Notes: generated by a model from the sequence alone, not told the origin. A stretch of DNA of 64,000 nt from Vampirovibrio sp. (GCA_021323475.1 JAJQJM010000001.1:141-64140); one strand, 5' to 3'; positions 7,526 through 47,166 are shown, counted from the stretch's first letter. Program-made: numbers and translations.

Positions 7526-7804
7526 CTAAAGCCCGTAACGAAACATAGCCCAGAACATGACGACACTGTAAATTGTCATCGCAATGCCCCGCATAAAGTG
7601 GCCTTCGGGAACCAACACCAATATTAAAATGCCCAGCAGGAAGAACAGCGTGAACATAATCATCATCCGTTCCTGAGACATTTTTTTGCGTTTGCTCGGG
7701 GTTGCGTTGGATGAACTTTCAACTTTGGAGGAGTCTGGTGAGGCCATGATAAAAAGTCCTGGTGGTTGGGAATGCCACCAGTTTACCACAAGCCTAGTGA
7801 GCAC
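7526..7804 (-). CDS. small hydrophobic membrane protein
   Basis: 92 aa with two predicted TM segments. Its start overlaps the stop of the upstream TrmB-family gene by 11 nt, which implies an operon. Confidence 0.45.
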   Translation of the reverse strand: MLTRLVVNWWHSQPPGLFIMASPDSSKVESSSNATPSKRKKMSQERMMIMFTLFFLLGILILVLVPEGHFMRGIAMTIYSVVMFWAMFRYGL

Positions 7805-8606
7805 CCACTCCCAGTTCCGCGCCCAAAATTTTACGGCGCAATAACAGCATGTTGCGTCCGTACAGACGCTCGATTTCCGGCAAAAGATTCCGCTGCACTT
7901 CCAGCAGGAAGAGGTTATGCACCACCAGTTCCTTAATCACCAGCACAATGCCGGGATTACGGGTTACCACAGCCTGCGGTGGCCGATCGCCGATACCCAC
8001 CGTGCTGACCAGCCCTTCCCGGCTGTCGGCGGAAAGAATAAGCCAGCGGCCACTCATCACGGAATGCTCGATTTCCGAATGCGGATACACTTCAATGCCT
8101 TCAATCTGGCAATTGTCATAGCCCACTACTTTTACATCTACCCCACGAGCCTGGGCTTCCCGTAAGGGTTGCGCCAACCGCTCTGAGTCCACCTGCCACA
8201 GTTCCACAAACACGGATTGCTGCGCATTGCGAATCATCTCCGTGGCATGCTTGAAGATGGATTCCTCGCCCCGCATGTTGATGACCGGCTCCACCGTTTC
8301 ATCGGCCAGGCTGGGCAGGGCTTCCCGCAGATAGCCTATAGATCCTTTAAAGGAACGTTCCCAACGGTCCAGCAACTCATCGGGCCGAATGGGCATGTAT
8401 GTCACCGGCTTGCCTCCGATGGCCACTACCACATTGCTGGATTCAAGCGCTTTCAGGGTATCGTAAGCTCTTGCCTGCGGCACCCCGGATTCCTTGCTGA
8501 TTTCGTAGCCGGTAGCAGGGTGGTGCTTCAGCAGCGCAAGGTAAACTTTGGCTTCGTACGTGTTGAACCCCAACTCTTTTAATTTGTCGATGAGGTTTTC
8601 CGACAA
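7794..8606 (-). CDS. TrmB-family transcriptional regulator
   Basis: N-terminal winged HTH (YEAKVYLALLKHHPATGYEISKESGVPQARAYDTLKALE) plus a C-terminal TrmB-like domain; 270 aa. Confidence 0.7.
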   Translation of the reverse strand: MSENLIDKLKELGFNTYEAKVYLALLKHHPATGYEISKESGVPQARAYDTLKALESSNVVVAIGGKPVTYMPIRPDELLDRWERSFKGSIGYLREALPSLADETVEPVINMRGEESIFKHATEMIRNAQQSVFVELWQVDSERLAQPLREAQARGVDVKVVGYDNCQIEGIEVYPHSEIEHSVMSGRWLILSADSREGLVSTVGIGDRPPQAVVTRNPGIVLVIKELVVHNLFLLEVQRNLLPEIERLYGRNMLLLRRKILGAELGVGAH

Positions 8607-33779: not shown

Positions 33780-33855
33780 TTGCCCTGATAAGCATCCATA
33801 GAAGGAGCAACCAAAGAAGGGGCAACCGAAAAACCCCGGTGGTTTTCTTCCAATC

Positions 33856-35292
33856 ATGACGCCGACTTTAATATTGCTAATCGCTTACTTTGCCGTTGTG
33901 CTTCTGGCAGCCCGTTTCTTCTCGCGCCGGGTAAGCGATTTGAAGGACTTCTTCCTGGCAGGCCGGTCACTGGGTTCCTTCCCGGTGGCTTTGACATTGG
34001 CGGCATCGTGGTTTGGGGCCGCCTCCACGCTTGGCTCCATCAATGCCTTTCATGATCAGGGCTTAAGCGGCGCCTGGCAGATTGTGCTGCCGTCCATCCT
34101 CTCCTTCATTATCATCACCTTATTTATGGCAAAGCCGGTCGCCCGGCAGAACTTCATGTCTCAGCCGGAAGCGGTGGAGGCCCATTACGGCAAGCTAGGA
34201 CGCCTGCTACTGGCCTTGATTATTCTGGCATCGGGCACTGTTCTGATCAGTTCCCAAATGGTTGTGGCGGGCAAGTTTTTTCAACTGATGTTCGGGCTGG
34301 ACATTACCTGGGCCACTATTATCAGCACCGCTGTTGTCGTCAGTTACGCCATGTGGGGCGGGTATTTTACGGTGGTCGTCACGGATATCGCCCAAATCAT
34401 CTTCATTGTGGCCGGTTTTCTGGTTCTGCTGCTGTTTACATCATCCGAAGCCATCCCAACCCCGGCGGCATGGCAGCACTTTATTACGCAGCAGCCGCCT
34501 CATTTCTGGAATTTAACCCATCAATGGCAGCAAAACATCTTCCTGGTTTTCACCTTTGTGCTGGCCTGGTGCATTGCCCCGGAAATGTGGCAGCGCATGT
34601 CCTCCACCCGCAACGAGGAGCAGGCGTTTAGGGCCGGATGGCAAGCCCTGCTGGTGATGTTGCTGCTATTCGGCATGATTACCGCCATCGGCCTGCTCAG
34701 CACCCAGCTGCTCGGCAAGAACGACGCGGTACTAATTGCGTTAGCCCAGCGCATTCCCAATCCGTTTCTCTGTGCCTTCGTGCTGATGGGCTTTTTATCC
34801 GCCGTCACCTCCACGATGGACTCCACCATGAATGTGGGCAGCCTGACCTTAACCCGCGATATCTACCAGAGTTTTCTACGCCCCCACGCCTCAACACGGG
34901 AGCTGATTTGGGCCGGGCGGATTGCCACGGTGCTGATTGTGCTGCCCGCCATGGCCATTGCGTTGTATTTTCAGGATCTCATCAAAATCCTGTGGATTTC
35001 TGCGGATATCTACGCATCCTGCATGTTCATTCCGGTGGTTGGCATGCTGTACCTCAAACATCCGGGGCGATTAAGCGGTGTGCTGGGCATGACCTGCGGG
35101 GGCATGATCGTGCTGCTGAGCATCTTGTTCCAGAATCATCTGGTACCCGATATACTGCATTGGCCGGATTGGCCCTATTCCACCCTGCTGGGAGTCGGAT
35201 TCAGCGGGCTGGGCTTTGGCGTTGGGTATTGGCTCTCCCGCCGACAGCCCGCTCCGGCAAAATCCGCTTCCGTTATACCAGATATGGGCTAG
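33856..35292 (+). CDS. sodium:solute symporter family transporter
   Basis: 478 aa, multi-TM, with the SSS-family N-terminal pattern (DFFLAGRSLG…AASWFGA). Confidence 0.8.
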   Translation: MTPTLILLIAYFAVVLLAARFFSRRVSDLKDFFLAGRSLGSFPVALTLAASWFGAASTLGSINAFHDQGLSGAWQIVLPSILSFIIITLFMAKPVARQNFMSQPEAVEAHYGKLGRLLLALIILASGTVLISSQMVVAGKFFQLMFGLDITWATIISTAVVVSYAMWGGYFTVVVTDIAQIIFIVAGFLVLLLFTSSEAIPTPAAWQHFITQQPPHFWNLTHQWQQNIFLVFTFVLAWCIAPEMWQRMSSTRNEEQAFRAGWQALLVMLLLFGMITAIGLLSTQLLGKNDAVLIALAQRIPNPFLCAFVLMGFLSAVTSTMDSTMNVGSLTLTRDIYQSFLRPHASTRELIWAGRIATVLIVLPAMAIALYFQDLIKILWISADIYASCMFIPVVGMLYLKHPGRLSGVLGMTCGGMIVLLSILFQNHLVPDILHWPDWPYSTLLGVGFSGLGFGVGYWLSRRQPAPAKSASVIPDMG

Positions 35293-35299
35293 CGAATGC

Positions 35300-36253
35300 T
35301 TAAGACCAGGGTGACAGTCTGGGTTGAGTGCCGCCATACGCATAACCTGGGTTGAACCCGGCATTAAACACGGTGGCCTTCAATGGCAAAGACGGCATCG
35401 TTGGTTGATAAGACAGTCCTTGAAATGGAGGGCCGTTCTCTTGGCTTGGCATGTATAACGGCGCTTGGGACAAAAAGGGTGCGGGAGGATTGGGTGCTTT
35501 TCCACCCAAGAGGCGGTTCATTCCCCACAGTAAGCCGGTTAACACCGACAAGTAACCGCTCAGCAGCGCCGTAGAGTAAATGGCCGTTTTTTTCAGGTCC
35601 GGCTTTCCATCGGGAACCAGATGCTCGTCCACCTTGTGCTGAATGTAATTCATCAACCGACCGTTGGAAGGGGTGCCCAGTTCTTTAGCAGTCAGGTGCT
35701 TGATTTTTTCTTCCAACAAGAATTTTGCCTTATCCGCATGAAAAATATTGGAGATAGAATCTTTCGCCCCATCGATGATGGCTTCCGCTTCTTCTTTTTT
35801 CAGGCTGACCTGCACCCCTTCCGCCTTCAGGAATTTACAAATCAGGCTGGTGCTAATCAGTGGGCGTATAAAGGCAAAGCCTACAAAACTCATTAACACC
35901 CCGCCTACCGTCATAGCGATTTGCCGGGTGGCCTCGTCCATTCCCCGTGTTTGCCCTGTGCCCGGCATACCCTGGGTTCGCCCGAACACCATATTCAACA
36001 AGCCACGCGTCAGCTCACCGCCGCCAAAATAACTCAATAAGCCAATGGTCCCGCTGACAAATTGCCGTCCGACTTCATTGACCTGCTGATTGTACTTCAC
36101 CACGTCCGACACGTTGGTGCGGGACATTTTATAGAACACCACCAACGGCGTTACAACGTTGGTGAGAACCGGCGCCAACCCGTTCAGCCAATAAATAAAG
36201 TTCGCCTGCTTCGGAGAAAGGCTGGTGCTGTAATAAGATTCGGGGGATGACAT
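35300..36253 (-). CDS. hypothetical membrane-associated protein
   Basis: 317 aa. A GGAGGA RBS lies 8 nt upstream. Several hydrophobic segments. Confidence 0.5.
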   Translation of the reverse strand: MSSPESYYSTSLSPKQANFIYWLNGLAPVLTNVVTPLVVFYKMSRTNVSDVVKYNQQVNEVGRQFVSGTIGLLSYFGGGELTRGLLNMVFGRTQGMPGTGQTRGMDEATRQIAMTVGGVLMSFVGFAFIRPLISTSLICKFLKAEGVQVSLKKEEAEAIIDGAKDSISNIFHADKAKFLLEEKIKHLTAKELGTPSNGRLMNYIQHKVDEHLVPDGKPDLKKTAIYSTALLSGYLSVLTGLLWGMNRLLGGKAPNPPAPFLSQAPLYMPSQENGPPFQGLSYQPTMPSLPLKATVFNAGFNPGYAYGGTQPRLSPWS

Positions 36254-36547
36254 TCAGGTTCCTCCGCTGGCAATGCCCGGCAATTTGGGGCTGGGCTCAC
36301 CAACCGGCATTCAGAGAAGCGGACATCGGGTTCGGATCGGATCAAGGCGGTGAATGGTTATAAAAATACCAATTTATCGGCCAATAGGCATGGTTGACTC
36401 TACTACACATGCAAGGGATTCACAATGATCCGCGTTTTTGGTGTTCAAACGGATTTGGGGTATGATAGCGGTGTTCCAACCCTTGTCAAGCAATTTTTTT
36501 AAACACCACGCCCTCACAAACACACTAAAATTAAAGGATTTATACGC

Positions 36548-37600
36548 TTGAGCACTCCTCACTCCGCCCCCCGCCTCGTTCGTGCCTGTAGAAACGAAAT
36601 TCTGGACCGTCCGCCGGTCTGGTTGATGCGCCAGGCGGGCCGCTATATGCCGGAATATCGGGCCATTCGGGAAAAGGTCAGCTTTCTGGAACTGTGCAAA
36701 AGTCCGGATCTGGCCGCAGAGGTCAGTCTGCAACCCTTCAAGGCATTCGGCATGGATGGCGTGATTATGTTCTCGGATATCCTGATTCCGCCGGAAGCAA
36801 TGGGTATGGAAGTGGTGTTTGGCGATGGTGGCCCGTCTTTCCCGAACCCGATTCAGAATGCTGCCGATGTAGACCGGCTGATTATTCCCGACCCGGTGGA
36901 AAAAACCGGCTTCGTCATGGACATTCTGCGGAAACTGCGCTCGGAGTTAGCCTCCAGCCCGGAAACCACCCTGATTGGCTTTGCTGGCTCCCCCTGGACG
37001 CTGGCCACCTATATGATTGAAGGCGGCGGCAGCAAGCAGTTCGCTAAAATCAAGGGCATGATGTACTCCGCGCCGGACGTATTGCACCGGTTGCTGGGCA
37101 AGCTTGCCGAAACCGTCACCCTGTACCTGAACGCCCAGATTGAAGCGGGCGCCCAGGTGGTGCAATTGTTCGACACCTGGGGCGGCATCCTCTCTGAGGA
37201 AGAGTACCGCCGGTTCATCCTGCCCTATCATAAGCAGATTATTGACGGCCTGAGCCGCGAACAGGCGCCTGTCATTCTGTATGTCAACAACAGCCGGGGC
37301 TTACTCCCGTTGATGGCTGAAGCCGGGCCGGATGTCATCAGCGTGGATCCGCTGACCTCGATTTCCTCCGCACGGGATATTGTCGGCCCTCGTTTCGCCC
37401 TGCAAGGCAACCTGGACCCTACCGCCCTGTTTGTCTCACCAGAGGTATTAAAACCGATGGTACAGTCTCTCATTCGGGAAGGCGGCAACCAAGGCTATAT
37501 CTTCAACCTGGGGCACGGCATTCTTCCCCCGACGCCGGTGGACAATGTACGCCTGCTGGTCGATTTAGTCAAAGAAAGCGCACTCGCGCGCACACCTTAA
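36548..37600 (+). CDS. hemE: uroporphyrinogen decarboxylase
   Basis: PVWLMRQAGRYMPEYR signature; TTG start. Confidence 0.9.
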   Translation: MSTPHSAPRLVRACRNEILDRPPVWLMRQAGRYMPEYRAIREKVSFLELCKSPDLAAEVSLQPFKAFGMDGVIMFSDILIPPEAMGMEVVFGDGGPSFPNPIQNAADVDRLIIPDPVEKTGFVMDILRKLRSELASSPETTLIGFAGSPWTLATYMIEGGGSKQFAKIKGMMYSAPDVLHRLLGKLAETVTLYLNAQIEAGAQVVQLFDTWGGILSEEEYRRFILPYHKQIIDGLSREQAPVILYVNNSRGLLPLMAEAGPDVISVDPLTSISSARDIVGPRFALQGNLDPTALFVSPEVLKPMVQSLIREGGNQGYIFNLGHGILPPTPVDNVRLLVDLVKESALARTP

Positions 37601-37629: not shown

Positions 37630-39030
37630 ATGGATTCCCCCGCCTCATCCATCAACAAAGAGCTATTGCAAAAATACAATACCGCCGGGCCTCGCTATAC
37701 CAGCTATCCCACCGCTCCCGTCTGGCAGGATAGTTATGACGCCCAAGCGCATGAGCTGACCATTCGGCAAACGAACCAGGGCGCCAATCCTCATCCGTTG
37801 TCACTCTATGCGCATTTGCCGTTTTGCGAACAGCGTTGCCTGTTCTGCGGCTGCAACGTGGTGATTACCAAGCAGCGCGATCAAGCGGAAAAATACCTGG
37901 GCTACCTGTTCAAGGAAATGGAAACCATTGCAGCCTGGATGGATCGCTCCCGCCCGGTGGTGCAATTCCATTGGGGCGGCGGCACACCGACCTATTTATC
38001 CGAAGAACAAATGGAGCGGCTCTTCAAGTTTCAGACCAGCCTGTTTCAACTCGCGCCGGATGCGGAAGTGGCCATTGAGGTCGATCCGCGCGTAACGACG
38101 CCAGAGCAACTGACCGTCCTCAAAGAATTGGGCTTTAACCGCATCAGCCTGGGGGTACAGGACTTTAACCCGCAGGTGCAGGAAGCCATTCACCGGGTGC
38201 AGCCGCTGGATATGACCACTCACATGGTGAAGCATTGCCGCGCGTTGGGCTTTGAAGGGTTAAACTTCGACCTGATTTACGGCCTGCCCTTCCAAACCGT
38301 GGAACGTTTTACCCAAACCGTGCAAGAGGTTATCGCCCTCAGCCCGGACCGGATTGCCCTCTACAGCTACGCGCATGTGCCGTGGCTCAGCCCGCACCAG
38401 ACCCAGATTCCTGAGGATGCCTTGCCGGAAACCGAAACCAAGTTCCGCATTTTGCAAATCGCCCTGCAATTGCTGACCGAAGCAGGCTACCTGTATATTG
38501 GAATGGACCACTTCGCCAAACCGCAGGATGAACTGGGTCAGGCATTGCAAAAAGGCACACTGCACCGGAACTTTATGGGCTATACCGTCCAGAAAGGCCA
38601 CCTGCCCAGCGATTTATACGGCTTCGGAGTCAGCGCCATCAGCGGCTTGCAAGGCCATTTTGCCCAGAACTGGCGCAAACTTTCGCAGTATTACGAGGCG
38701 CTGGATAACGATCGCATTCCGGTAATGCGTGGTTATGTGCTGAGCGATGAGGATAAATTGCGCCAACAGGTGATTCTGGCGATTTTATGCCAGGGCCGGA
38801 TTGAGTACAGCGAAATCAACAACCGGTTCGGCATTGATTTCAAAGCCCATTTCGCCGATTCCTTGCATCAACTGGAAGCGCCTGCACAAGACGGTCTGGT
38901 GGAACTGAACGAGCACCATCTGGTTTTGACACCGGTTGGGCGCATGTTCAGCCGCAATATTGCCATGCCCTTTGATGCGTATCTTCCTAAACTTAGCGGC
39001 GATAAGCCGACGTTTTCCAAAACCGTTTGA
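37630..39030 (+). CDS. hemN: oxygen-independent coproporphyrinogen-III oxidase (radical SAM)
   Basis: LYAHLPFCEQRCLFCGCN and GGGTPTYL motifs. Confidence 0.9.
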   Translation: MDSPASSINKELLQKYNTAGPRYTSYPTAPVWQDSYDAQAHELTIRQTNQGANPHPLSLYAHLPFCEQRCLFCGCNVVITKQRDQAEKYLGYLFKEMETIAAWMDRSRPVVQFHWGGGTPTYLSEEQMERLFKFQTSLFQLAPDAEVAIEVDPRVTTPEQLTVLKELGFNRISLGVQDFNPQVQEAIHRVQPLDMTTHMVKHCRALGFEGLNFDLIYGLPFQTVERFTQTVQEVIALSPDRIALYSYAHVPWLSPHQTQIPEDALPETETKFRILQIALQLLTEAGYLYIGMDHFAKPQDELGQALQKGTLHRNFMGYTVQKGHLPSDLYGFGVSAISGLQGHFAQNWRKLSQYYEALDNDRIPVMRGYVLSDEDKLRQQVILAILCQGRIEYSEINNRFGIDFKAHFADSLHQLEAPAQDGLVELNEHHLVLTPVGRMFSRNIAMPFDAYLPKLSGDKPTFSKTV

Positions 39031-39053: not shown

Positions 39054-40109
39054 ATGCCTTCCCCGAAAACCGGTATTTTGCTCCTGAACATGGGCGGCCC
39101 GGACAGTCTGGAAAACGTCAGGCCGTTTCTCTTCAATTTATTTTCCGATCCGGATATTATTCGCCTGCCGTTTTCCAGCGTATTGCAAAAACCGCTAGCC
39201 AACCGTATTTCCACCAAACGGGAAAAAGAGGCCCAGGAAAACTACGCGCAAATGGGCGGTGCCTCACCCATCCTGCATTATACGCAAGCCCAGGCGGAAG
39301 GGCTGAAAGCGGAGTTGGCCCAGCGAGGCTACCCGAACCTGAATACTTATATCGCCATGCGCTACTGGCACCCTTTTACGGATGCAGCGGTGGATCAAAT
39401 CATGCGGGATGGCATTGAACGCCTGATTGTATTGCCCCTGTACCCACATTTTTCCTATACCACCACAGGTAGCAGCCTGAATGAGCTGAAGCGTGTATTG
39501 GAGGCCCGTGGCTTACGGTTGGAACTGTCCGTTATCCCGTCTTATTTTGATTACCCTGTGTTTGAGCGGGCGGTGGCGGAAAATATTCGCTATGCGCTGG
39601 AAAACGAGTGCTGGAGCTGCCCACCGGATGAAGTACAACTGTTGTTCACCGCGCATAGTTTGCCGTTAAAACACATCAAACGCACTCAGGACCCATACCC
39701 GGATCAGGTCTATAAAACGGCGGAACGCATTGCCAAAACTTATTTTCCCAATAACCAATGGGAATTGTCGTACCAGAGTCAGGTCGGAAAAATGCCCTGG
39801 TTGGGGCCTTACACCGATGGGGTGCTGCATTATTTTTCCGGCAAAAGAATTGATAACGTACTGATGATCGCCATCAGCTTCGTGTCGGATCACGTGGAAA
39901 CATTGGTTGAGATTGACCGCATGTTTATCCCGATTGCGAATGACCTGGAGATTACCCATTGCCACCGGGCTCCCGCCTTGAACACCAGCCCGACTTTCAT
40001 CCGGGCTTTGGCGGACCTGACAATGGAACGGCTTGAGGAGCGTTCTGCGGAAAACCCGCTGGCATTTCCCACCTTTCCGGAATTGTTAAAAGCGCAGGCT
40101 TCGTCTTAA
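39054..40109 (+). CDS. hemH: ferrochelatase
   Basis: GILLLNMGGPDSLE…YWHPF and other ferrochelatase motifs. Confidence 0.9.
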   Translation: MPSPKTGILLLNMGGPDSLENVRPFLFNLFSDPDIIRLPFSSVLQKPLANRISTKREKEAQENYAQMGGASPILHYTQAQAEGLKAELAQRGYPNLNTYIAMRYWHPFTDAAVDQIMRDGIERLIVLPLYPHFSYTTTGSSLNELKRVLEARGLRLELSVIPSYFDYPVFERAVAENIRYALENECWSCPPDEVQLLFTAHSLPLKHIKRTQDPYPDQVYKTAERIAKTYFPNNQWELSYQSQVGKMPWLGPYTDGVLHYFSGKRIDNVLMIAISFVSDHVETLVEIDRMFIPIANDLEITHCHRAPALNTSPTFIRALADLTMERLEERSAENPLAFPTFPELLKAQASS

Positions 40110-41488
40110 TGATTCAAGCGTCGCCATCCCATTGCGACACTTTAGTAATCGGTGCAGGCGTTAGCGGCCTGAGCGCCGCTTACCAGTTACATCAGGCCGG
40201 TAAAGCGGTGCGGGTCATTGAAGCGAGTCCCCATGCGGGGGGCCTTATTCGTTCCCACTGGGAGGCAGGATTTTTAACCGAAGCGGGCCCCAATACCTTT
40301 CCCAGTACCGCCACGGAAATTCTGGACCTTTGCGAACAACTCCGGTTGGAGCCCCAGGCGACACACCCGAACGCCAAAAAACGATATTTGTATTTGAATG
40401 GCAAGCTGACGGCCCTGCCCGGCCATCCTCTGCAAGCCGTAACCACTCCCGCATTATCGTTATTCGGGAAGCTAAGAGCGCTGCAAGAACCCTTCCAGCC
40501 CAGAACTCGCACCAATGACATCAGCGTGGCCGACTTTCTTGAAAATCGCGTTGGTAAAGAAGTGGTTGAGCGCTTGGCGGATCCGTTTATCAGTGGCATT
40601 TATGCCGGCAATGTGGCCGAACTCAGCCTGCCCGCCGTGTTCCCTAAATTGTGGCAGTGGGAGCAATCCGCGGGAGGTTTGCTGAAAGGGGCCAGGCAAG
40701 CAAAACGAGCTTCCCGCCATTCAAATACTCCCAAAAAGCCTATGCAGCTTTTGAGCTTTGCAGGCGGTCTGGAATCGTTCATTAGCGCTCTGGTAAACGC
40801 CCTTCCAGAAGGAACCTGTCACTTCGGGCACAGTGTGACCCAAGTGGAAGTGACCGAAACAGGCTACCAAGTACAGTTACACACCGGTGAGTTGTTGACA
40901 TGCCATCACGTAATCATCGCCACCCCGGCGTATACTGCGGCGCGTTTAATCCATTCCCTGAGTGAATCGGGCAGCAACGCCTTGCAAAATATTCCCTATA
41001 ACGGATTGGCCGTGGTGCATTTGGGCTTTAACAAAGCCGATATTCCCCATCCCCTGGACGGATTCGGCTGCCTGATTCCCCGCCGGGAAAAATTACCCCT
41101 ATTAGGCACAATTTGGGCCAGCAGCCTGTTTCCCAACCGGGCACCGGAAGGCCAGGTGCTGCTCAGCAATTTCATCGGCGGCGCGCATCACCCGGAAATT
41201 GTGGGGTGGCCACCGGCCAAGATTGAGCAATTGGTACTGCGGAATTTGCAAACCGTTTTTAAGATTCCTGAACCCATCCAGCCCACCTATAGCCAAGCAC
41301 TGATTTACGACAAGGCCATTCCGCAATACAGTCTGGGCCACTTAAACAGAATCCAAACCATTGAGGCCGAGTTGCAAAAAAATCCGCATTTGCATTTATG
41401 CGGGAACTATTTACACGGCATTGCCCTGAACGAATGCGTGAAATCCGGCCTTGCTGCCGCCAATGCGATTATCGACCCTTTAAAATAA
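40109..41488 (+). CDS. hemY: FAD-dependent protoporphyrinogen/coproporphyrinogen oxidase (HemY family)
   Basis: N-terminal dinucleotide-binding GAGVSGLSAAY and overall HemY length and pattern. Confidence 0.8.
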   Translation: MIQASPSHCDTLVIGAGVSGLSAAYQLHQAGKAVRVIEASPHAGGLIRSHWEAGFLTEAGPNTFPSTATEILDLCEQLRLEPQATHPNAKKRYLYLNGKLTALPGHPLQAVTTPALSLFGKLRALQEPFQPRTRTNDISVADFLENRVGKEVVERLADPFISGIYAGNVAELSLPAVFPKLWQWEQSAGGLLKGARQAKRASRHSNTPKKPMQLLSFAGGLESFISALVNALPEGTCHFGHSVTQVEVTETGYQVQLHTGELLTCHHVIIATPAYTAARLIHSLSESGSNALQNIPYNGLAVVHLGFNKADIPHPLDGFGCLIPRREKLPLLGTIWASSLFPNRAPEGQVLLSNFIGGAHHPEIVGWPPAKIEQLVLRNLQTVFKIPEPIQPTYSQALIYDKAIPQYSLGHLNRIQTIEAELQKNPHLHLCGNYLHGIALNECVKSGLAAANAIIDPLK

Positions 41489-43562
41489 GCGCTTGAAGCG
41501 ACTGCACCCAAGCGATTTCCGTTTCAGTCAGGCCGTAACTTTCATAAACCGAACTGTTTAATTCGCTCCAAATCGCTTCGCGCGGCTGATTCGCTTTGGG
41601 GTCAGATAATTCCTGGGCCAAAGCACTTAATTTGGATCGAACATTATCCGTCATACCGGTAGGCTTGGGAAAGCAAAGCAACACGTCTTTATCAATCTGC
41701 AGACGATGCCCTTTGCGTTTTTGCTTATAAAACCAGTACCAGCCCAACGTGGAATTTAACAGGGCACACAGTAAAAACGGATCCGCTTCCGTTCGGACGC
41801 TGTAAAACCCTTCATTTACATACGCCGGGAACTCAATCACCGCAAAGGATGGCACCATTACCTGCCGGGGGCATAGAATCTTGCGGGCGTCTTCAAACCA
41901 AATTGGCTGCCGCGCCCGATGCAGGCCATACGGCGCAAAATCGGACGTTAACACCGGACGAAACCGATCCAGGTGTTTTCTGATTTGCGGATAAGACGTG
42001 ACTGCATTTTCCATTAAAGTGCGATTTTGCGCGTTGCCGTAAATCAAGTAATAGTCGGGCTGTGTGCCTTTAAATCCCTGGAACGGTAAAAAACCGGCAG
42101 GTTGAAAATAAGGTTTTAGCAACTGCTGTTCCGTATCATTCAGAGCCAACGCCCGCACTTCCGCCGCATCCAGCAGAAAAATGCCCGCATGCTCCGGGAT
42201 ATTCTCAGCCGTTTCCCGCAACAGTCGTTCCCGATCCTGTTTTTTCAAACGCCCTTGAGGCAATACAATCCCCTGCTGGACCTGCATTTGATTTAATAAG
42301 GGCTCCAGGGCGGATAATTTATCCATGAGCCCCATTTCGATAGAATCGCCATACAACAGCTTACCGGAAGCCTGATTAAGAGTAAAAACCACCGACTTCA
42401 ATTGACGCGCATCGAGATCATGCTCGCCACAACCAAAACCCATTTGAGTCGCCTGACACGGCGGCTCGCTCGCTATCGTTTCGTTTTTGGATTCACGGTT
42501 ATTTTTTTGCCAGATTAAAAAAGAACTATGGTGTCCCGGCGCATTTTTAAACAGCCTGCTGTCCTGAAATGACCAGAATTCCCGTATAGCACCTTGCCGC
42601 CACAGGTGTTTCCGCAAGTCGGCGGTGCTGGTTCGCTGGGTCCTATATTCCGGCAATACATATACCAAATGCCCTTTGGGGGATAAATGCTCCACGCCCC
42701 ATGCTAAAAACGCGTCACATAAATCCATTTTGGGTTGATAATAACCCTGCCTATTCTGCAAGGGTTGAAACCGCCCGGATTGTTTTCGCACCTCTGATAC
42801 ATACGGCGGATTCCCCAATATAAAATCCCAGGCATGCGTGTGTGAAAACACCTCCTGCTGCATGGTATTACCCCATCGAATCTGGCTAGGCAATGAAGCC
42901 AGGGAGAGCCATGCCTCGGACGCATCCAGTCGATGCACCCACTGAAGCAGGCGACACTCGGCAATCATCACACTAAGTGGATCAATATCCACCCCATACA
43001 ATTGATGCAGAAACACATGCCTGGCAGGATTTTCCGTGACTAATTCGACATCGATTTGATTTACCTGCTGATAAAAATCGCTCAGCACCTTGAGTGCTTC
43101 CATCAAAAAAACCCCGGTCCCACAGGCCGGATCAATCACCTTCAACCCACGCACAACCTCAAGCAATGCCAATGCCGCGGCAACTTGCCCGTTCCGCATG
43201 AGCGCCTGTATATTCGCTCGCTGTTCATCCAAATACACCCCCAAGGAGCGGCGGGTTAAGTAAGCCGCCACTGGAACCGGCGTATAAAACACACCGGATT
43301 GGGGCTGACCCTGTTTACGCTGCTTTTTCGCCAGCGTTTCTAAAATATCCTGATAACGCAACACCCACTCATCGTTGGTTTGACCTATCAATTGAGAACT
43401 ACCCGGCATTTTGGAAAGCAGCAATCCGTCAGCACTGGGGGTATTCTTCAAATCTTCGCCGCACGGATATTGTGCCCGCAATGTATCCCAAGCCAGTCGG
43501 GATAATTCCGGGATAGAATCCAAAGATATATCAGAATGATCCGCAAGTAAGTGGGTACTCAT
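41469..43562 (-). CDS. N6-adenine DNA methyltransferase, Eco57I/TaqI family (gamma class), apparently orphan
   Basis: Motif I VIDPACGTGVFL and motif IV FILGNPPYV, plus a large C-terminal TRD-like region. 697 aa. No adjacent endonuclease-sized ORF. GC is lower than in the flanking genes. Confidence 0.8.
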   Translation of the reverse strand: MSTHLLADHSDISLDSIPELSRLAWDTLRAQYPCGEDLKNTPSADGLLLSKMPGSSQLIGQTNDEWVLRYQDILETLAKKQRKQGQPQSGVFYTPVPVAAYLTRRSLGVYLDEQRANIQALMRNGQVAAALALLEVVRGLKVIDPACGTGVFLMEALKVLSDFYQQVNQIDVELVTENPARHVFLHQLYGVDIDPLSVMIAECRLLQWVHRLDASEAWLSLASLPSQIRWGNTMQQEVFSHTHAWDFILGNPPYVSEVRKQSGRFQPLQNRQGYYQPKMDLCDAFLAWGVEHLSPKGHLVYVLPEYRTQRTSTADLRKHLWRQGAIREFWSFQDSRLFKNAPGHHSSFLIWQKNNRESKNETIASEPPCQATQMGFGCGEHDLDARQLKSVVFTLNQASGKLLYGDSIEMGLMDKLSALEPLLNQMQVQQGIVLPQGRLKKQDRERLLRETAENIPEHAGIFLLDAAEVRALALNDTEQQLLKPYFQPAGFLPFQGFKGTQPDYYLIYGNAQNRTLMENAVTSYPQIRKHLDRFRPVLTSDFAPYGLHRARQPIWFEDARKILCPRQVMVPSFAVIEFPAYVNEGFYSVRTEADPFLLCALLNSTLGWYWFYKQKRKGHRLQIDKDVLLCFPKPTGMTDNVRSKLSALAQELSDPKANQPREAIWSELNSSVYESYGLTETEIAWVQSLQALILKGR

Positions 43563-43976
43563 GTCCCTATGCTATCCCATTGCGCCCCGGAAGAAAAGAG
43601 TCTATATGAGTTAGCAAAAAGTGAAGAAAAAGAAAAAGATGAGAACGGAGAGCGAATGTGTTCTCATCAAAAGGAGAGGGCGAAATTAAAAATGAACCCA
43701 GTCTATATCCCAGAGAGCAGATTCCTCATCCCACCTAACGGAACCTGGCTTGAAACGGGCAATGCCTTGCAACCGGCTGCCAGCACATAGAGAGCGCAAA
43801 TGTGGCAGGCGCCTGTTTGGTTGTGGATTGCTTGATTCCGTTTCATCTCTATCTTCCTTCTACCTACTTTTCCACCACTTCCTACTCAGTTTTCCCTAGT
43901 GTTATGTCAAAACCTTCTACTCAACAAATGTATTGCCTAATTAAACATTTAAGCTGAAAACAAACCCGCAAAGCGA

Positions 43977-44207
43977 TTAGTTGGCGACTTCAACACCGGC
44001 AATGGATTGCAGTGATGCATAGTCACGCACGGCTTCGGATTTCATTTCAACCGGCTCACCTACGAAAATAGCAAAAATTTCGGAAGACACTTCATCATAA
44101 AGCGAATCATAGTCTACTAACGATTTAGGCTGCGGCATCGGCACGGACGTGGATACGAATTGCAGCTCACTATAAACCAAAGCTTTTGGATCAGGCGTGA
44201 AACTCAT
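43977..44207 (-). CDS. small acidic hypothetical protein (76 aa) in a low-GC island
   Basis: GAGGAG RBS 10 nt upstream of the ATG. Confidence 0.4.
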   Translation of the reverse strand: MSFTPDPKALVYSELQFVSTSVPMPQPKSLVDYDSLYDEVSSEIFAIFVGEPVEMKSEAVRDYASLQSIAGVEVAN

Positions 44208-45127: not shown

Positions 45128-45445
45128 TCAGGCTACAAACGACAGCCGAAACAGCGGAGAGGTCAATGAGTTGAGAGACACGCCCTTCGTCATTGATCCT
45201 GCAGCCGTCCAATCCGTTCCCGCATTCGGACTGAACACCGCCATGGTGGGATCGGTTCCCAGCGTTATGGCTTCCAGTTCGGATACCTCATCACGGAGTT
45301 GATCCACTTGGCGTTGCGCCTCATAAACGGACGCTCCCGGGGTATAACCAACCGGCGCGCCATAAAGCGCGTTACTCTCCACAAAGTCCAGCGGGTAATT
45401 AACAGTAGACTGCCCGCCAGTTCCACTAAAGGCTAACATATTCAT
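45128..45445 (-). CDS. small hypothetical protein (105 aa) in a low-GC island
   Basis: AAGGAGA RBS 6 nt upstream of the ATG. Confidence 0.45.
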   Translation of the reverse strand: MNMLAFSGTGGQSTVNYPLDFVESNALYGAPVGYTPGASVYEAQRQVDQLRDEVSELEAITLGTDPTMAVFSPNAGTDWTAAGSMTKGVSLNSLTSPLFRLSFVA

Positions 45446-45972: not shown

Positions 45973-47166
45973 TTAGTAGCCGCCTCCAGCACCTGCCGTT
46001 GGCTTAACAACAGCTGCAGCAAGACCCGGGCCACCGCCTTTACTTGCATACCCGGCACCGGCGTTACCGGCGTTACCAGCATTGCCTGCATTTCCGGCAT
46101 TGCCTGCGTTACCTGCGTTGCCGGCGTTTCCTGCATTACCTGCGTTGCCCGCATTGCCTGCGTTGCCCGCATTGCCTGCGTTGCCCGCATTGCCTGCGTT
46201 GCCTGCGTTGCCTGCGTTGCCCGCGTTGCCGGCATTACCTGCGTTACCGGCCTGACCACCTAAGGAACCTGCGTATGGATTGCCCGCACCGGCACCGGCA
46301 CCGGCACCGCCCATCATATTGGTTAGCAATGACATCAGCATCGTCAATATCTGTAGGACAATGCCCATCATGCCACCTCCTGTGGCATCTGCGCCTGGAG
46401 CAGGTGCTGCAGCAGCTTTATTACCCGCTCCTGCATTTCCGGCATTGCCCGCATTCCCCGCGTTTCCGGCATTGCCTGCATTACCGGCACCTTTACCACC
46501 ACCAGCGCCTTTGGCTTCGCCGTTCTCAATATTGGAATCTAAATCCCCGGAGGTGACGGCATTAATGGCCCGCTGATATTTCTTATCATCTTCTACAGCA
46601 TCCTTATCGGTACTGTTGAAGACCTGCTTCAGATCCAGGTCGCCATTGCCTAACGCTTCGCCAACCGCACCGATTGTTTCCACGTCGTTTTGACCAACGC
46701 CCGGCTTTTTCGCCAAGTCGCCTCTTCCATTTTTTTCCAGTAGTTCCTTCAAACGACCATTGTTATAGTTACCACCCGCGTTTTTATAACGCGATGCCAC
46801 CAATAGGAATGTCTTTTGTGGGCCGTCCGGCAATTTAGCCAGGTTATTCATGGCTCCAGGCATTTGGCCGGCTTTTAATCGCCCTCCGGCCAAAAACTCC
46901 GCCGCATAACCGGTTACAATCCCCGCTCGGTCGCCGCCTGCTTTTTTAAGTTTATCCTGATTAACGTTACCACCCTGATCGACAGCCTCTGCATAGGCTT
47001 GAGCGGACTTCACATTACCCAAAACAAGACCGCTCAAATTCGGTCCGGCATTGGCTCCTACTGCTGGTCCGGCAGCTGCGGCAGCAGGAATTCCACCGCC
47101 ATATGCATTGAGCATATTCATCATTGTGGCATATGGATTTATTAAACTGCTATATGGACTAACCAT
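45973..47166 (-). CDS. (Gly-Asn-Ala)n collagen-like tandem-repeat protein, large paralog
   Basis: 397 aa with an AGGAGA RBS. Unique N-terminal ~215 aa. Short (GNA)n block, then hydrophobic helix GMMGIVLQILTMLMSLLTNMMGG, then ~29 uninterrupted GNA triplets, ending …VVKPTAGAGGGY. Confidence 0.7.
   Translation of the reverse strand: MVSPYSSLINPYATMMNMLNAYGGGIPAAAAAGPAVGANAGPNLSGLVLGNVKSAQAYAEAVDQGGNVNQDKLKKAGGDRAGIVTGYAAEFLAGGRLKAGQMPGAMNNLAKLPDGPQKTFLLVASRYKNAGGNYNNGRLKELLEKNGRGDLAKKPGVGQNDVETIGAVGEALGNGDLDLKQVFNSTDKDAVEDDKKYQRAINAVTSGDLDSNIENGEAKGAGGGKGAGNAGNAGNAGNAGNAGNAGAGNKAAAAPAPGADATGGGMMGIVLQILTMLMSLLTNMMGGAGAGAGAGNPYAGSLGGQAGNAGNAGNAGNAGNAGNAGNAGNAGNAGNAGNAGNAGNAGNAGNAGNAGNAGNAGNAGNAGNAGAGYASKGGGPGLAAAVVKPTAGAGGGY
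46059..46251. repeat. tandem 9-bp (GCNGGNAAY-type) repeats encoding (GNA)n, long block of gene 1
   Basis: Repeated gcctgcgttgcccgcattgcc units in the sequence. A shorter block is at 46432..46491. Confidence 0.85.

Follow-up and report, generated by a model that had tools for sequence, protein, structure and literature searches.

A solitary DNA methylase gene was analysed together with its surroundings in a stretch of 64 000 nucleotides (nt) from Vampirovibrio sp. (GCA_021323475.1 JAJQJM010000001.1:141-64140), referred to here as the window. The gene occupies positions 41469..43562 on the minus strand and, according to its open reading frame (ORF) and translation, starts with ATG and encodes a gamma-class N6-adenine DNA methyltransferase of 697 amino acids (aa). 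It is convergent with hemY (40109..41488, plus strand; protoporphyrinogen oxidase, TIGR00562, 326 bits against a cut-off of 98), and the ORF coordinates give a 3′ overlap of 20 nt between the two genes (41469..41488). On the upstream side lie a promoter-like site (43563..43598, minus strand), a candidate structured non-coding RNA of ~300 nt (43622..43924, minus strand), situated between this site and p76, and p76 itself (43977..44207, minus strand), which encodes a conserved acidic protein of 76 aa in the same orientation as the methylase. An earlier note on this DNA had correctly recognized the methylase and its overlap with hemY but had described the upstream side as merely non-coding DNA with a possible small peptide, overlooking both the conserved element and p76.

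The methylase carries the motifs of the gamma class in the order motif X (GVFYTP, residues 90–95), motif I for S-adenosyl-methionine (SAM) binding (DPACGTGVF, residues 144–152) and motif IV (NPPY, residues 251–254), followed by a large C-terminal recognition domain. Motif I had previously been given as FxGxG; the motif is present, in the form of an A-x-G-x-G variant. In an alignment of 34 sequences that are 35–64 % identical to the window methylase, N251, P252 and P253 were invariant and the remaining motif residues were invariant or nearly so. Pfam models for Eco57I (PF07669; 59.9 bits, curated cut-off 25.3), N6_Mtase (PF02384; 52.3 bits, cut-off 20.4) and MmeI_Mtase (45.5 bits, cut-off 27) matched well above their cut-offs, and the Eco57I/N6_Mtase superfamily was matched by all 34 of the 34 family members. 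The ORF, motifs and Pfam scores thus agree with the original assignment of a 697 aa gamma-class enzyme in which a target recognition domain follows NPPY. Five regions were distinguished: N-terminal helices (residues 1–85), the catalytic domain (~86–365), a variable insert (~352–385), a TaqI_C-like recognition domain (~386–640) and C-terminal helices (641–697). TaqI_C (PF12950) was detected in 21 of the 34 aligned family members, with a best value of 5.4e-7. Because a stop codon closes the frame 9 nt before the ATG, the ORF has no room for extension and is not the tail of a longer one, in line with the view that this is not a fusion of type IIG size.

An AlphaFold2 model built from the family alignment was predicted with confidence (predicted local distance difference test, pLDDT, 88.9; predicted template modelling score, pTM, 0.86). 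The top Foldseek match of this model was CamA (E 5e-29, template modelling (TM) score 0.73–0.75 over ~545 residues), followed among solved structures by M.BseCI (E 3e-23, TM score 0.68–0.71), MmeI, BrxX/PglX and BpuSI. The model aligns over its whole length with the folds of CamA and M.BseCI, both solved with DNA. CamA was also first when the family profile was compared with PDB sequences (7e-32), and is the closest solved structure by both sequence and fold. According to PMC8187626, CamA is an orphan N6-adenine DNA methyltransferase of Clostridioides difficile with the target CAAAAA (PDB 7lni, 8cxz), which has no restriction partner and is conserved in one lineage and rare outside it. Both enzymes are stand-alone members of the gamma class with an N-terminal catalytic and a C-terminal DNA-recognition domain. 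However, they are only 17–18 % identical, and the window methylase, at 697 aa compared with 577 aa for CamA, has an extra N-terminal segment of ~85 aa as well as the C-terminal helices. M.BseCI and M.TaqI likewise share the class and the domain order and, as judged from the family members that match TaqI_C, the TaqI_C domain family, but these enzymes adjoin a cognate endonuclease, and none was found beside the window methylase or its relatives.

When 1.84 billion representative proteins were searched with the family profile, ~28 family representatives scored 440 bits or more, and below them extended a continuum of proteins that were mostly 850–1400 aa long. In many of these lower-tier proteins, profile positions ~50–680 align to residues ~330–1000, and type IIG-like relatives carry ~330 extra N-terminal residues. 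With the type IIG/IIL enzymes Eco57I, MmeI and BpuSI the window methylase has in common the Eco57I and MmeI_Mtase domains and a predicted TaqI_C-like domain after the catalytic domain. Unlike these enzymes, which are ~900–1300 aa long, it lacks the N-terminal nuclease and helical part of ~300 aa; only ~85 residues precede motif X and no Pfam nuclease domain is present. As judged from these alignments, the family is the methylase-plus-recognition module of type IIG/IIL enzymes minus the N-terminal nuclease part. It also differs from them in that its recognition domain is conserved rather than diversified. Mean pairwise identity within the family was 0.51 for the recognition domain (residues 386–640) and 0.48 for the catalytic domain. 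The recognition domain is therefore as conserved as the catalytic domain, which suggests one fixed target that is probably the same across the lineage. Diversification of the recognition domain is usual in restriction and BREX (bacteriophage exclusion) methylases and is the opposite of the pattern observed here.

Partner genes were sought among the immediate neighbours of the methylase and among the ORFs of the 64 kb window that are 180 aa or longer. The 38 other window ORFs of this size included no nuclease and no restriction, BREX, DISARM (defence island system associated with restriction–modification) or type I component; all were housekeeping genes, including those for flagellar rod and P-ring proteins, beta-oxidation enzymes and EPSP (5-enolpyruvylshikimate-3-phosphate) synthase. 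The four ORFs upstream of the methylase (p76, p105, p397 and p155) had no PADLOC match and no match to a nuclease or defence family in Pfam, NCBIfam or PHROGs. In ~20 related loci, no nuclease, specificity, helicase, BREX or DISARM partner was found beside the methylase, which answers the earlier suggestion that related genomes be searched for a cognate restriction enzyme, and HsdS, HsdR and PglZ were absent both from these loci and from the window ORFs screened. The claim that no endonuclease, specificity or helicase gene accompanies the methylase was therefore borne out for the window ORFs screened. The methylase shares a similar catalytic domain with the BREX protein PglX/BrxX and with MAD2 of the methylation-associated defence system (MADS). 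It is ~500 aa shorter than PglX, however, and the best NCBIfam PglX score was 49 bits against cut-offs of 400–900, while MAD2 (NF047738) scored 26 bits against a cut-off of 720. Neither BREX PglZ, BrxC or BrxL nor MADS partner genes were present among the window ORFs screened. With scores so far below the cut-offs, the methylase does not belong to these defence families. A type I HsdM subunit is likewise not indicated, as HsdS and HsdR are missing and the methylase carries its own recognition domain.

The adjacent genes are hemY, H, N and E on one side and p76, p105, p397, p155 and mutY on the other, none of them an endonuclease gene. On the hem side, hemN (37630..39030) precedes hemH (39054..40109), which lies between hemN and hemY. 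Beyond p76 follow p105 (45128..45445, minus strand), p397 (45973..47166, minus strand; 397 aa), p155 (48251..48718, minus strand; 155 aa) and mutY (49075..50256), giving the gene order mutY, p155, p397, p105, p76, methylase, hemY-H-N-E. The p397 and p155 proteins contain long Gly-Asn-Ala (GNA) tripeptide repeats flanking a hydrophobic segment, and both end in GGGY. Homologues of the N-terminal ~210 aa of p397 sit between mutY and the methylase in many relatives. Matches of p397 and p155 to collagen and phage tail-fibre proteins stem from the low-complexity GNA repeats, and these identities were rejected.

Approximately 50 full-length relatives of the methylase were found, with 35–63 % identity and lengths of 630–750 aa; below these, identity falls to ~25 % and the matching proteins are mostly ~1000 aa long. 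Among GTDB genomes, taken as one genome per species, a full-length member was present in only 12, and the next best matches were 26 % identical. Ten of the 12 carrier genomes are labelled Vampirovibrio, Vampirovibrionales or Melainabacteria and two bear cyanobacterial family names. The latter are metagenome-assembled genomes labelled Coleofasciculaceae and Oculatellaceae (loci L005, DATNPJ010000027.1, and L012, DATNQC010000326.1), in which the gene order is Vampirovibrio-like (methylase and hem genes, with mutY in L012) and hemY identity is 53–57 %. The cyanobacterial labels are therefore probably wrong.

The methylase adjoins hemY in at least 16 of 21 loci, that of Vampirovibrio chlorellavorus included, with mutY, p397 and p76 homologues on the opposite side. 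In most of the related loci the two genes converge, with hemY closing a hemE-hemN-hemH-hemY series, and overlaps of 10–20 nt between the two genes recur in L001, L003, L089, L091 and L092; in L014 the genes are separated by 3.5 kb. Across 13 loci, the identity of the methylase to the window protein tracked that of hemY (Pearson r=0.97), a co-divergence that fits the prediction of vertical descent. The block around the methylase has a lower G+C content and had been taken for a genomic island. From the conserved gene order and the co-divergence of methylase and hemY, this 'island' is a conserved chromosomal block and not mobile DNA. The 3′ flank of hemY is variable in some lineages and lacks the methylase in L093, L094 and a locus found by protein P0153; in one of these flanks, a gene for a phage-type integrase is found together with Phage_rep_O-like and ZorA-like genes. 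Beside the hemE end of the hem cluster, a thiamine pyrophosphate (TPP) riboswitch was detected in L005 (7713..7824, 66 bits, above the gathering score) and in L013 (9683..9796), where its 51 bits fall just short of that score; the corresponding part of the window (36100..36700) yielded none.

The methylase ATG is abutted by a promoter-like site that comprises a box, CTTTTCTTC, at 43590..43598, a spacer of 15 nt, a −10-like hexamer, TAGCAT, at 43569..43574, and a further 6 nt before the ATG. The arrangement CTTTTCTTC-N15-17-TAnnAT-N6-7-ATG was present in ~19 of 21 related loci with a spacer of variable sequence, and no Shine–Dalgarno sequence precedes the methylase ATG in the window or in the related loci. 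The box alone occurs three times in the 64 kb window (0.58 expected) and the combined box and TAnnAT pattern twice (0.08 expected). With only three copies in 64 kb, the box was rejected as a general −35 element. The second match to the combined pattern is at 33843..33874 on the plus strand and overlaps the start of an ORF at 33856..35292. The conservation of this site suggests that the methylase may be transcribed from its own promoter abutting the ATG, as a leaderless mRNA.

The element further upstream has the appearance of a structured RNA that is very highly conserved, has not been described before and lacks a counterpart in Rfam 15, and it is a more novel item than the methylase. It has a purine-rich 5′ part, three CU-rich loop motifs (GCUCUC), three GAUGAG motifs and a terminal hairpin. 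Nucleotide identity across relatives was 69–99 %, compared with 42–63 % for the methylase proteins and 42–81 % for the flanking proteins. For individual loci, the identities of the element (nucleotide) and of the methylase (protein) were, respectively, 97.5 and 63 % in L003, 90 and 53 % in L004, 84 and 50 % in L089, 80 and 45 % in L090, 78 and 48 % in L091, 77 and 46 % in L007, 76 and 46 % in L005, 70.5 and 46 % in L092 and 69 and 42 % in L013. Comparison by tblastx gave similar scores in all six frames, and the lengths of indels were not multiples of three. A covariance model detected a single copy in the window and likewise a single copy at each of 13 further loci. A metagenome scan with the invariant 20-mer of the element yielded two true copies (L084 and L087); three further candidates (L085, L086 and L088) were discarded as chance matches of the 20-mer in unrelated DNA. 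Rfam (version 15) gave no match to the element in the window at the gathering score, only noise for 43500..44050 at E≤10, and nothing for the elements of L084, L087, L005 and L013 at E≤1.

Covariation was examined by applying a nine-helix model to 12 copies that MAFFT had aligned without regard to structure, a comparison that rests on only ~10 distinct sequences. In this model, 97 % of cells were paired, compared with 50–57 % when the partners were slid by one to three columns, and two-sided changes were seen in 10 pairs (25 cells), compared with one to three pairs (one to four cells) in the slid controls. The covariation is carried by a helix that pairs 43838–43844 with 43752–43758, a hairpin that pairs 43800–43804 with 43784–43788 around the conserved loop UUGCGCUCUCU, and the stem CCAGRUUCC/GGAAUCUG, which is re-coded entirely in L091. 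The minimum free energy of the single sequence was no better than that of shuffled sequences (z +1.04). RNAalifold energies were alike on both strands (−29.9 and −29.4), and the assignment to the minus strand therefore rests on the terminator, on invariant G-U pairs and on a higher covariance term. At its 3′ end, ~55 nt upstream of the methylase ATG, the element closes with a terminator-like hairpin (43622..43668, minus strand) composed of GAUGAGAAC, a 13 nt loop UUCGCUCUC and GUUCUCAUC, followed by UUUUUCUUUUUCUUC. Its fold energy is −11.5 kcal/mol (z −5.2) and it is invariant in the 12 full-length copies; an automatic terminator scan made no call here because the loop exceeds 8 nt. The GATGAG and GCTCTC motifs were considered as candidate methylation sites and set aside, as their counts in the window are uninformative: 33 copies of GATGAG were observed against 23.6 expected, a number reached in three of 100 shuffles, and GCTCTC was not enriched (18 observed, 20.4 expected).

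In the V. chlorellavorus clade, the covariance model matches only the terminal hairpin. This clade has a conserved spacer of its own (L001 ~7540..8000, L006, L008 and L010; 71–85 % identical across the four loci), which shares with the element only the hairpin GAUGCGAAC...GUUCUCAUC and a polypyrimidine run, and which contains a second strong terminator-like hairpin, AACCCUUUU...AAAGGGUUUUUU.

The peptide of 32 aa that had been proposed upstream of the methylase corresponds to an ORF that does exist (43692..43790, plus strand) but is not a gene. It lies inside the RNA-like element and antisense to it, and was frame-shifted, truncated or start-less in nine of 11 relatives: the frame is broken in L084, in spite of 99 % nucleotide identity, and in L004, L087, L091 and L092, the ORF is truncated in L089 and L007, and an ATG is missing in L005 and L013. 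Two further features ascribed to it did not hold. Rather than reading antisense to the 5′ region of the methylase, the ORF is located 130–228 nt upstream of the ATG at 43562, and its supposed ribosome-binding site, AAGGAGAGGG, is the complement of a conserved minus-strand motif, CCCUCUCCUU.

Homologues of p76 were found by tblastn at the same position in 16 loci with 43–100 % identity. No match was obtained for p76 in Pfam, NCBIfam, PADLOC or PHROGs, the protein database gave close relatives only, and the AlphaFold2 model (pLDDT 60.7) was too poor for a structure search. A role as a controller (C) protein or defence protein was rejected, since neither a helix-turn-helix domain nor any other family match was present. 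p76 and the RNA-like element occurred together in 12 of the 12 loci where both could be scored, while L009, L011 and L014 contain the methylase with neither of them. The element is therefore associated more closely with p76 than with the methylase. As the promoter-like site is downstream of the terminal hairpin, the element would be either a separate unit or the 3′ part of a p76 transcript rather than a leader of the methylase, and a riboswitch-type leader is unlikely given the conserved site between hairpin and ATG. These observations also speak against the proposal that the methylase belongs to a minimal defence module with small proteins, because the peptide is not a gene, p76 shows no recognizable domain and is absent from several methylase loci, and the neighbourhood is one of housekeeping genes.

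Taken together, the gene probably encodes an N6-adenine DNA methylase that is active and solitary and has a fixed target, has been inherited vertically in the Vampirovibrionales, derives ultimately from a type IIG-like module and serves the cell's own chromosome rather than restriction. Of the readings offered in the earlier note, it is the solitary methylase that agrees with the lack of partners in the window and ~20 loci, the stable position, the co-divergence, the conserved recognition domain and the rank of CamA as nearest solved structure. The N-terminal Rossmann domain (motif I DPACGTG, an acidic motif II and NPPY) would bind SAM and methylate a flipped-out adenine, and the C-terminal TaqI_C-like domain would read a short, fixed target sequence; the enzyme is probably monomeric. 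With no nuclease, the mark would most likely serve the cell's own chromosome in regulation, replication or repair, as with CamA, Dam and CcrM, and the enzyme may have a housekeeping, regulatory ('epigenetic') role. Transcription would start from the methylase's own promoter, just downstream of the terminator-like end of the RNA-like element. It is plausible that the family arose long ago from a type IIG-like enzyme that had lost its nuclease part.

Several observations weigh against this interpretation. The window methylase itself gives no match to TaqI_C (PF12950) at E≤0.01. The search for partners spans only 64 kb of the genome, and enzymes with NPPY also include RNA and protein methylases. 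The methylase is without an adjacent hemY in L090 and L009, and the hem clusters of three relatives (hemY 56–62 % identical), those with the variable 3′ flanks described above, have no methylase alongside. The latter loci were picked for sharing no contig with a methylase match and are a biased sample, which implies only that the adjacency, and possibly the presence, of the methylase is not universal. The methylase also evolves faster than its housekeeping neighbours, with 38–63 % identity compared with 48–81 % for hemY.

It is unlikely, although more plausible than the other alternatives, that the methylase provides the modification function for a restriction–modification or other defence system with its nuclease or effector elsewhere in the genome or in an unrecognized neighbour. 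The best PADLOC matches of the methylase are type IIG enzymes, type II methylases and MAD2, its family profile aligns end to end with type IIG-like proteins of ~1000 aa, and such a system is compatible with the limited part of the genome in view and with the relatives in which no methylase lies beside hemY. It is opposed by the absence of nuclease, helicase, PglZ, HsdS and HsdR genes from the window ORFs screened and from ~20 loci, by PglX and MAD2 scores far under their cut-offs and by a recognition domain that is conserved instead of diversified. Stable synteny and a divergence that tracks hemY are, in addition, rare for mobile defence genes.

Slightly less probable again is an arrangement in which p76, the RNA-like element and the methylase form one module, for example an RNA-governed epigenetic switch in which the RNA or p76 controls the methylase. 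The order p76, RNA, methylase is kept in one orientation in 12 loci, including L090 with no adjacent hemY, the element ends ~55 nt before the methylase ATG, and its purine-rich 5′ segment shows partial complementarity to the CTTTTCTTC box and the U/C tail. However, three loci have the methylase but neither p76 nor the RNA, the V. chlorellavorus clade retains the terminal hairpin only, and the terminator-like end followed by a promoter-like site suggests separate transcription units; conservation of gene order in the region accounts for the adjacency without a functional link. We consider it equally doubtful that the element, as a new RNA class specific to the Vampirovibrionales, forms a functional unit with p76 and the methylase, in which the RNA, with its three GCUCUC loops, could for example govern the timing or the site of methylase synthesis or action.

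A substrate other than DNA, such as adenine in ribosomal or transfer RNA or a protein glutamine, as for enzymes of the RlmL/UPF0020 and PrmC/HemK types, is improbable. A weak Pfam match to UPF0020 (RMKL-like; 28.8 bits) points in this direction, and the location next to haem genes brings to mind the history of HemK. The best matches in sequence and in fold, however, are all DNA methylases solved with DNA (CamA, M.BseCI, MmeI and BrxX), the large recognition domain resembles the DNA-recognizing TaqI_C type, and the methylase, being convergent with hemY, is not co-transcribed with it. Least credible of all is a decaying remnant, whether of a lost restriction–modification or BREX-like system or as a truncated pseudogene of a type IIG enzyme, since, although homologous to type IIG-like proteins over their C-terminal two thirds, the ORF is intact with all motifs, catalytic and recognition-domain residues are invariant across the 34 sequences, the length of 630–750 aa is constant in ~50 relatives, the fold is predicted confidently and a conserved promoter-like site of its own precedes the gene.

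Orphan methylases restricted to one lineage are well known, and the solitary methylase of the window is another of this kind. The Vampirovibrionales, a little-studied group, are relatives of cyanobacteria that live as predators and do not photosynthesize. Neither a DNA methylase nor a restriction system is named in the genome paper on V. chlorellavorus, and a search of the literature on Vampirovibrio methyltransferases found nothing on point. The RNA-like element merits a place in RNA family catalogues and, if the doubtful link to the methylase were true, the p76-RNA-methylase unit would be an RNA-coupled epigenetic module in a predatory bacterium. Solitary methylases that a whole lineage has kept, among them Dam, CcrM and CamA, have time and again proved to control the cell cycle, development or virulence. 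The window methylase is a candidate of this type for the Vampirovibrionales and offers a concrete gene to link to N6-methyladenine (m6A) motifs in their methylomes.

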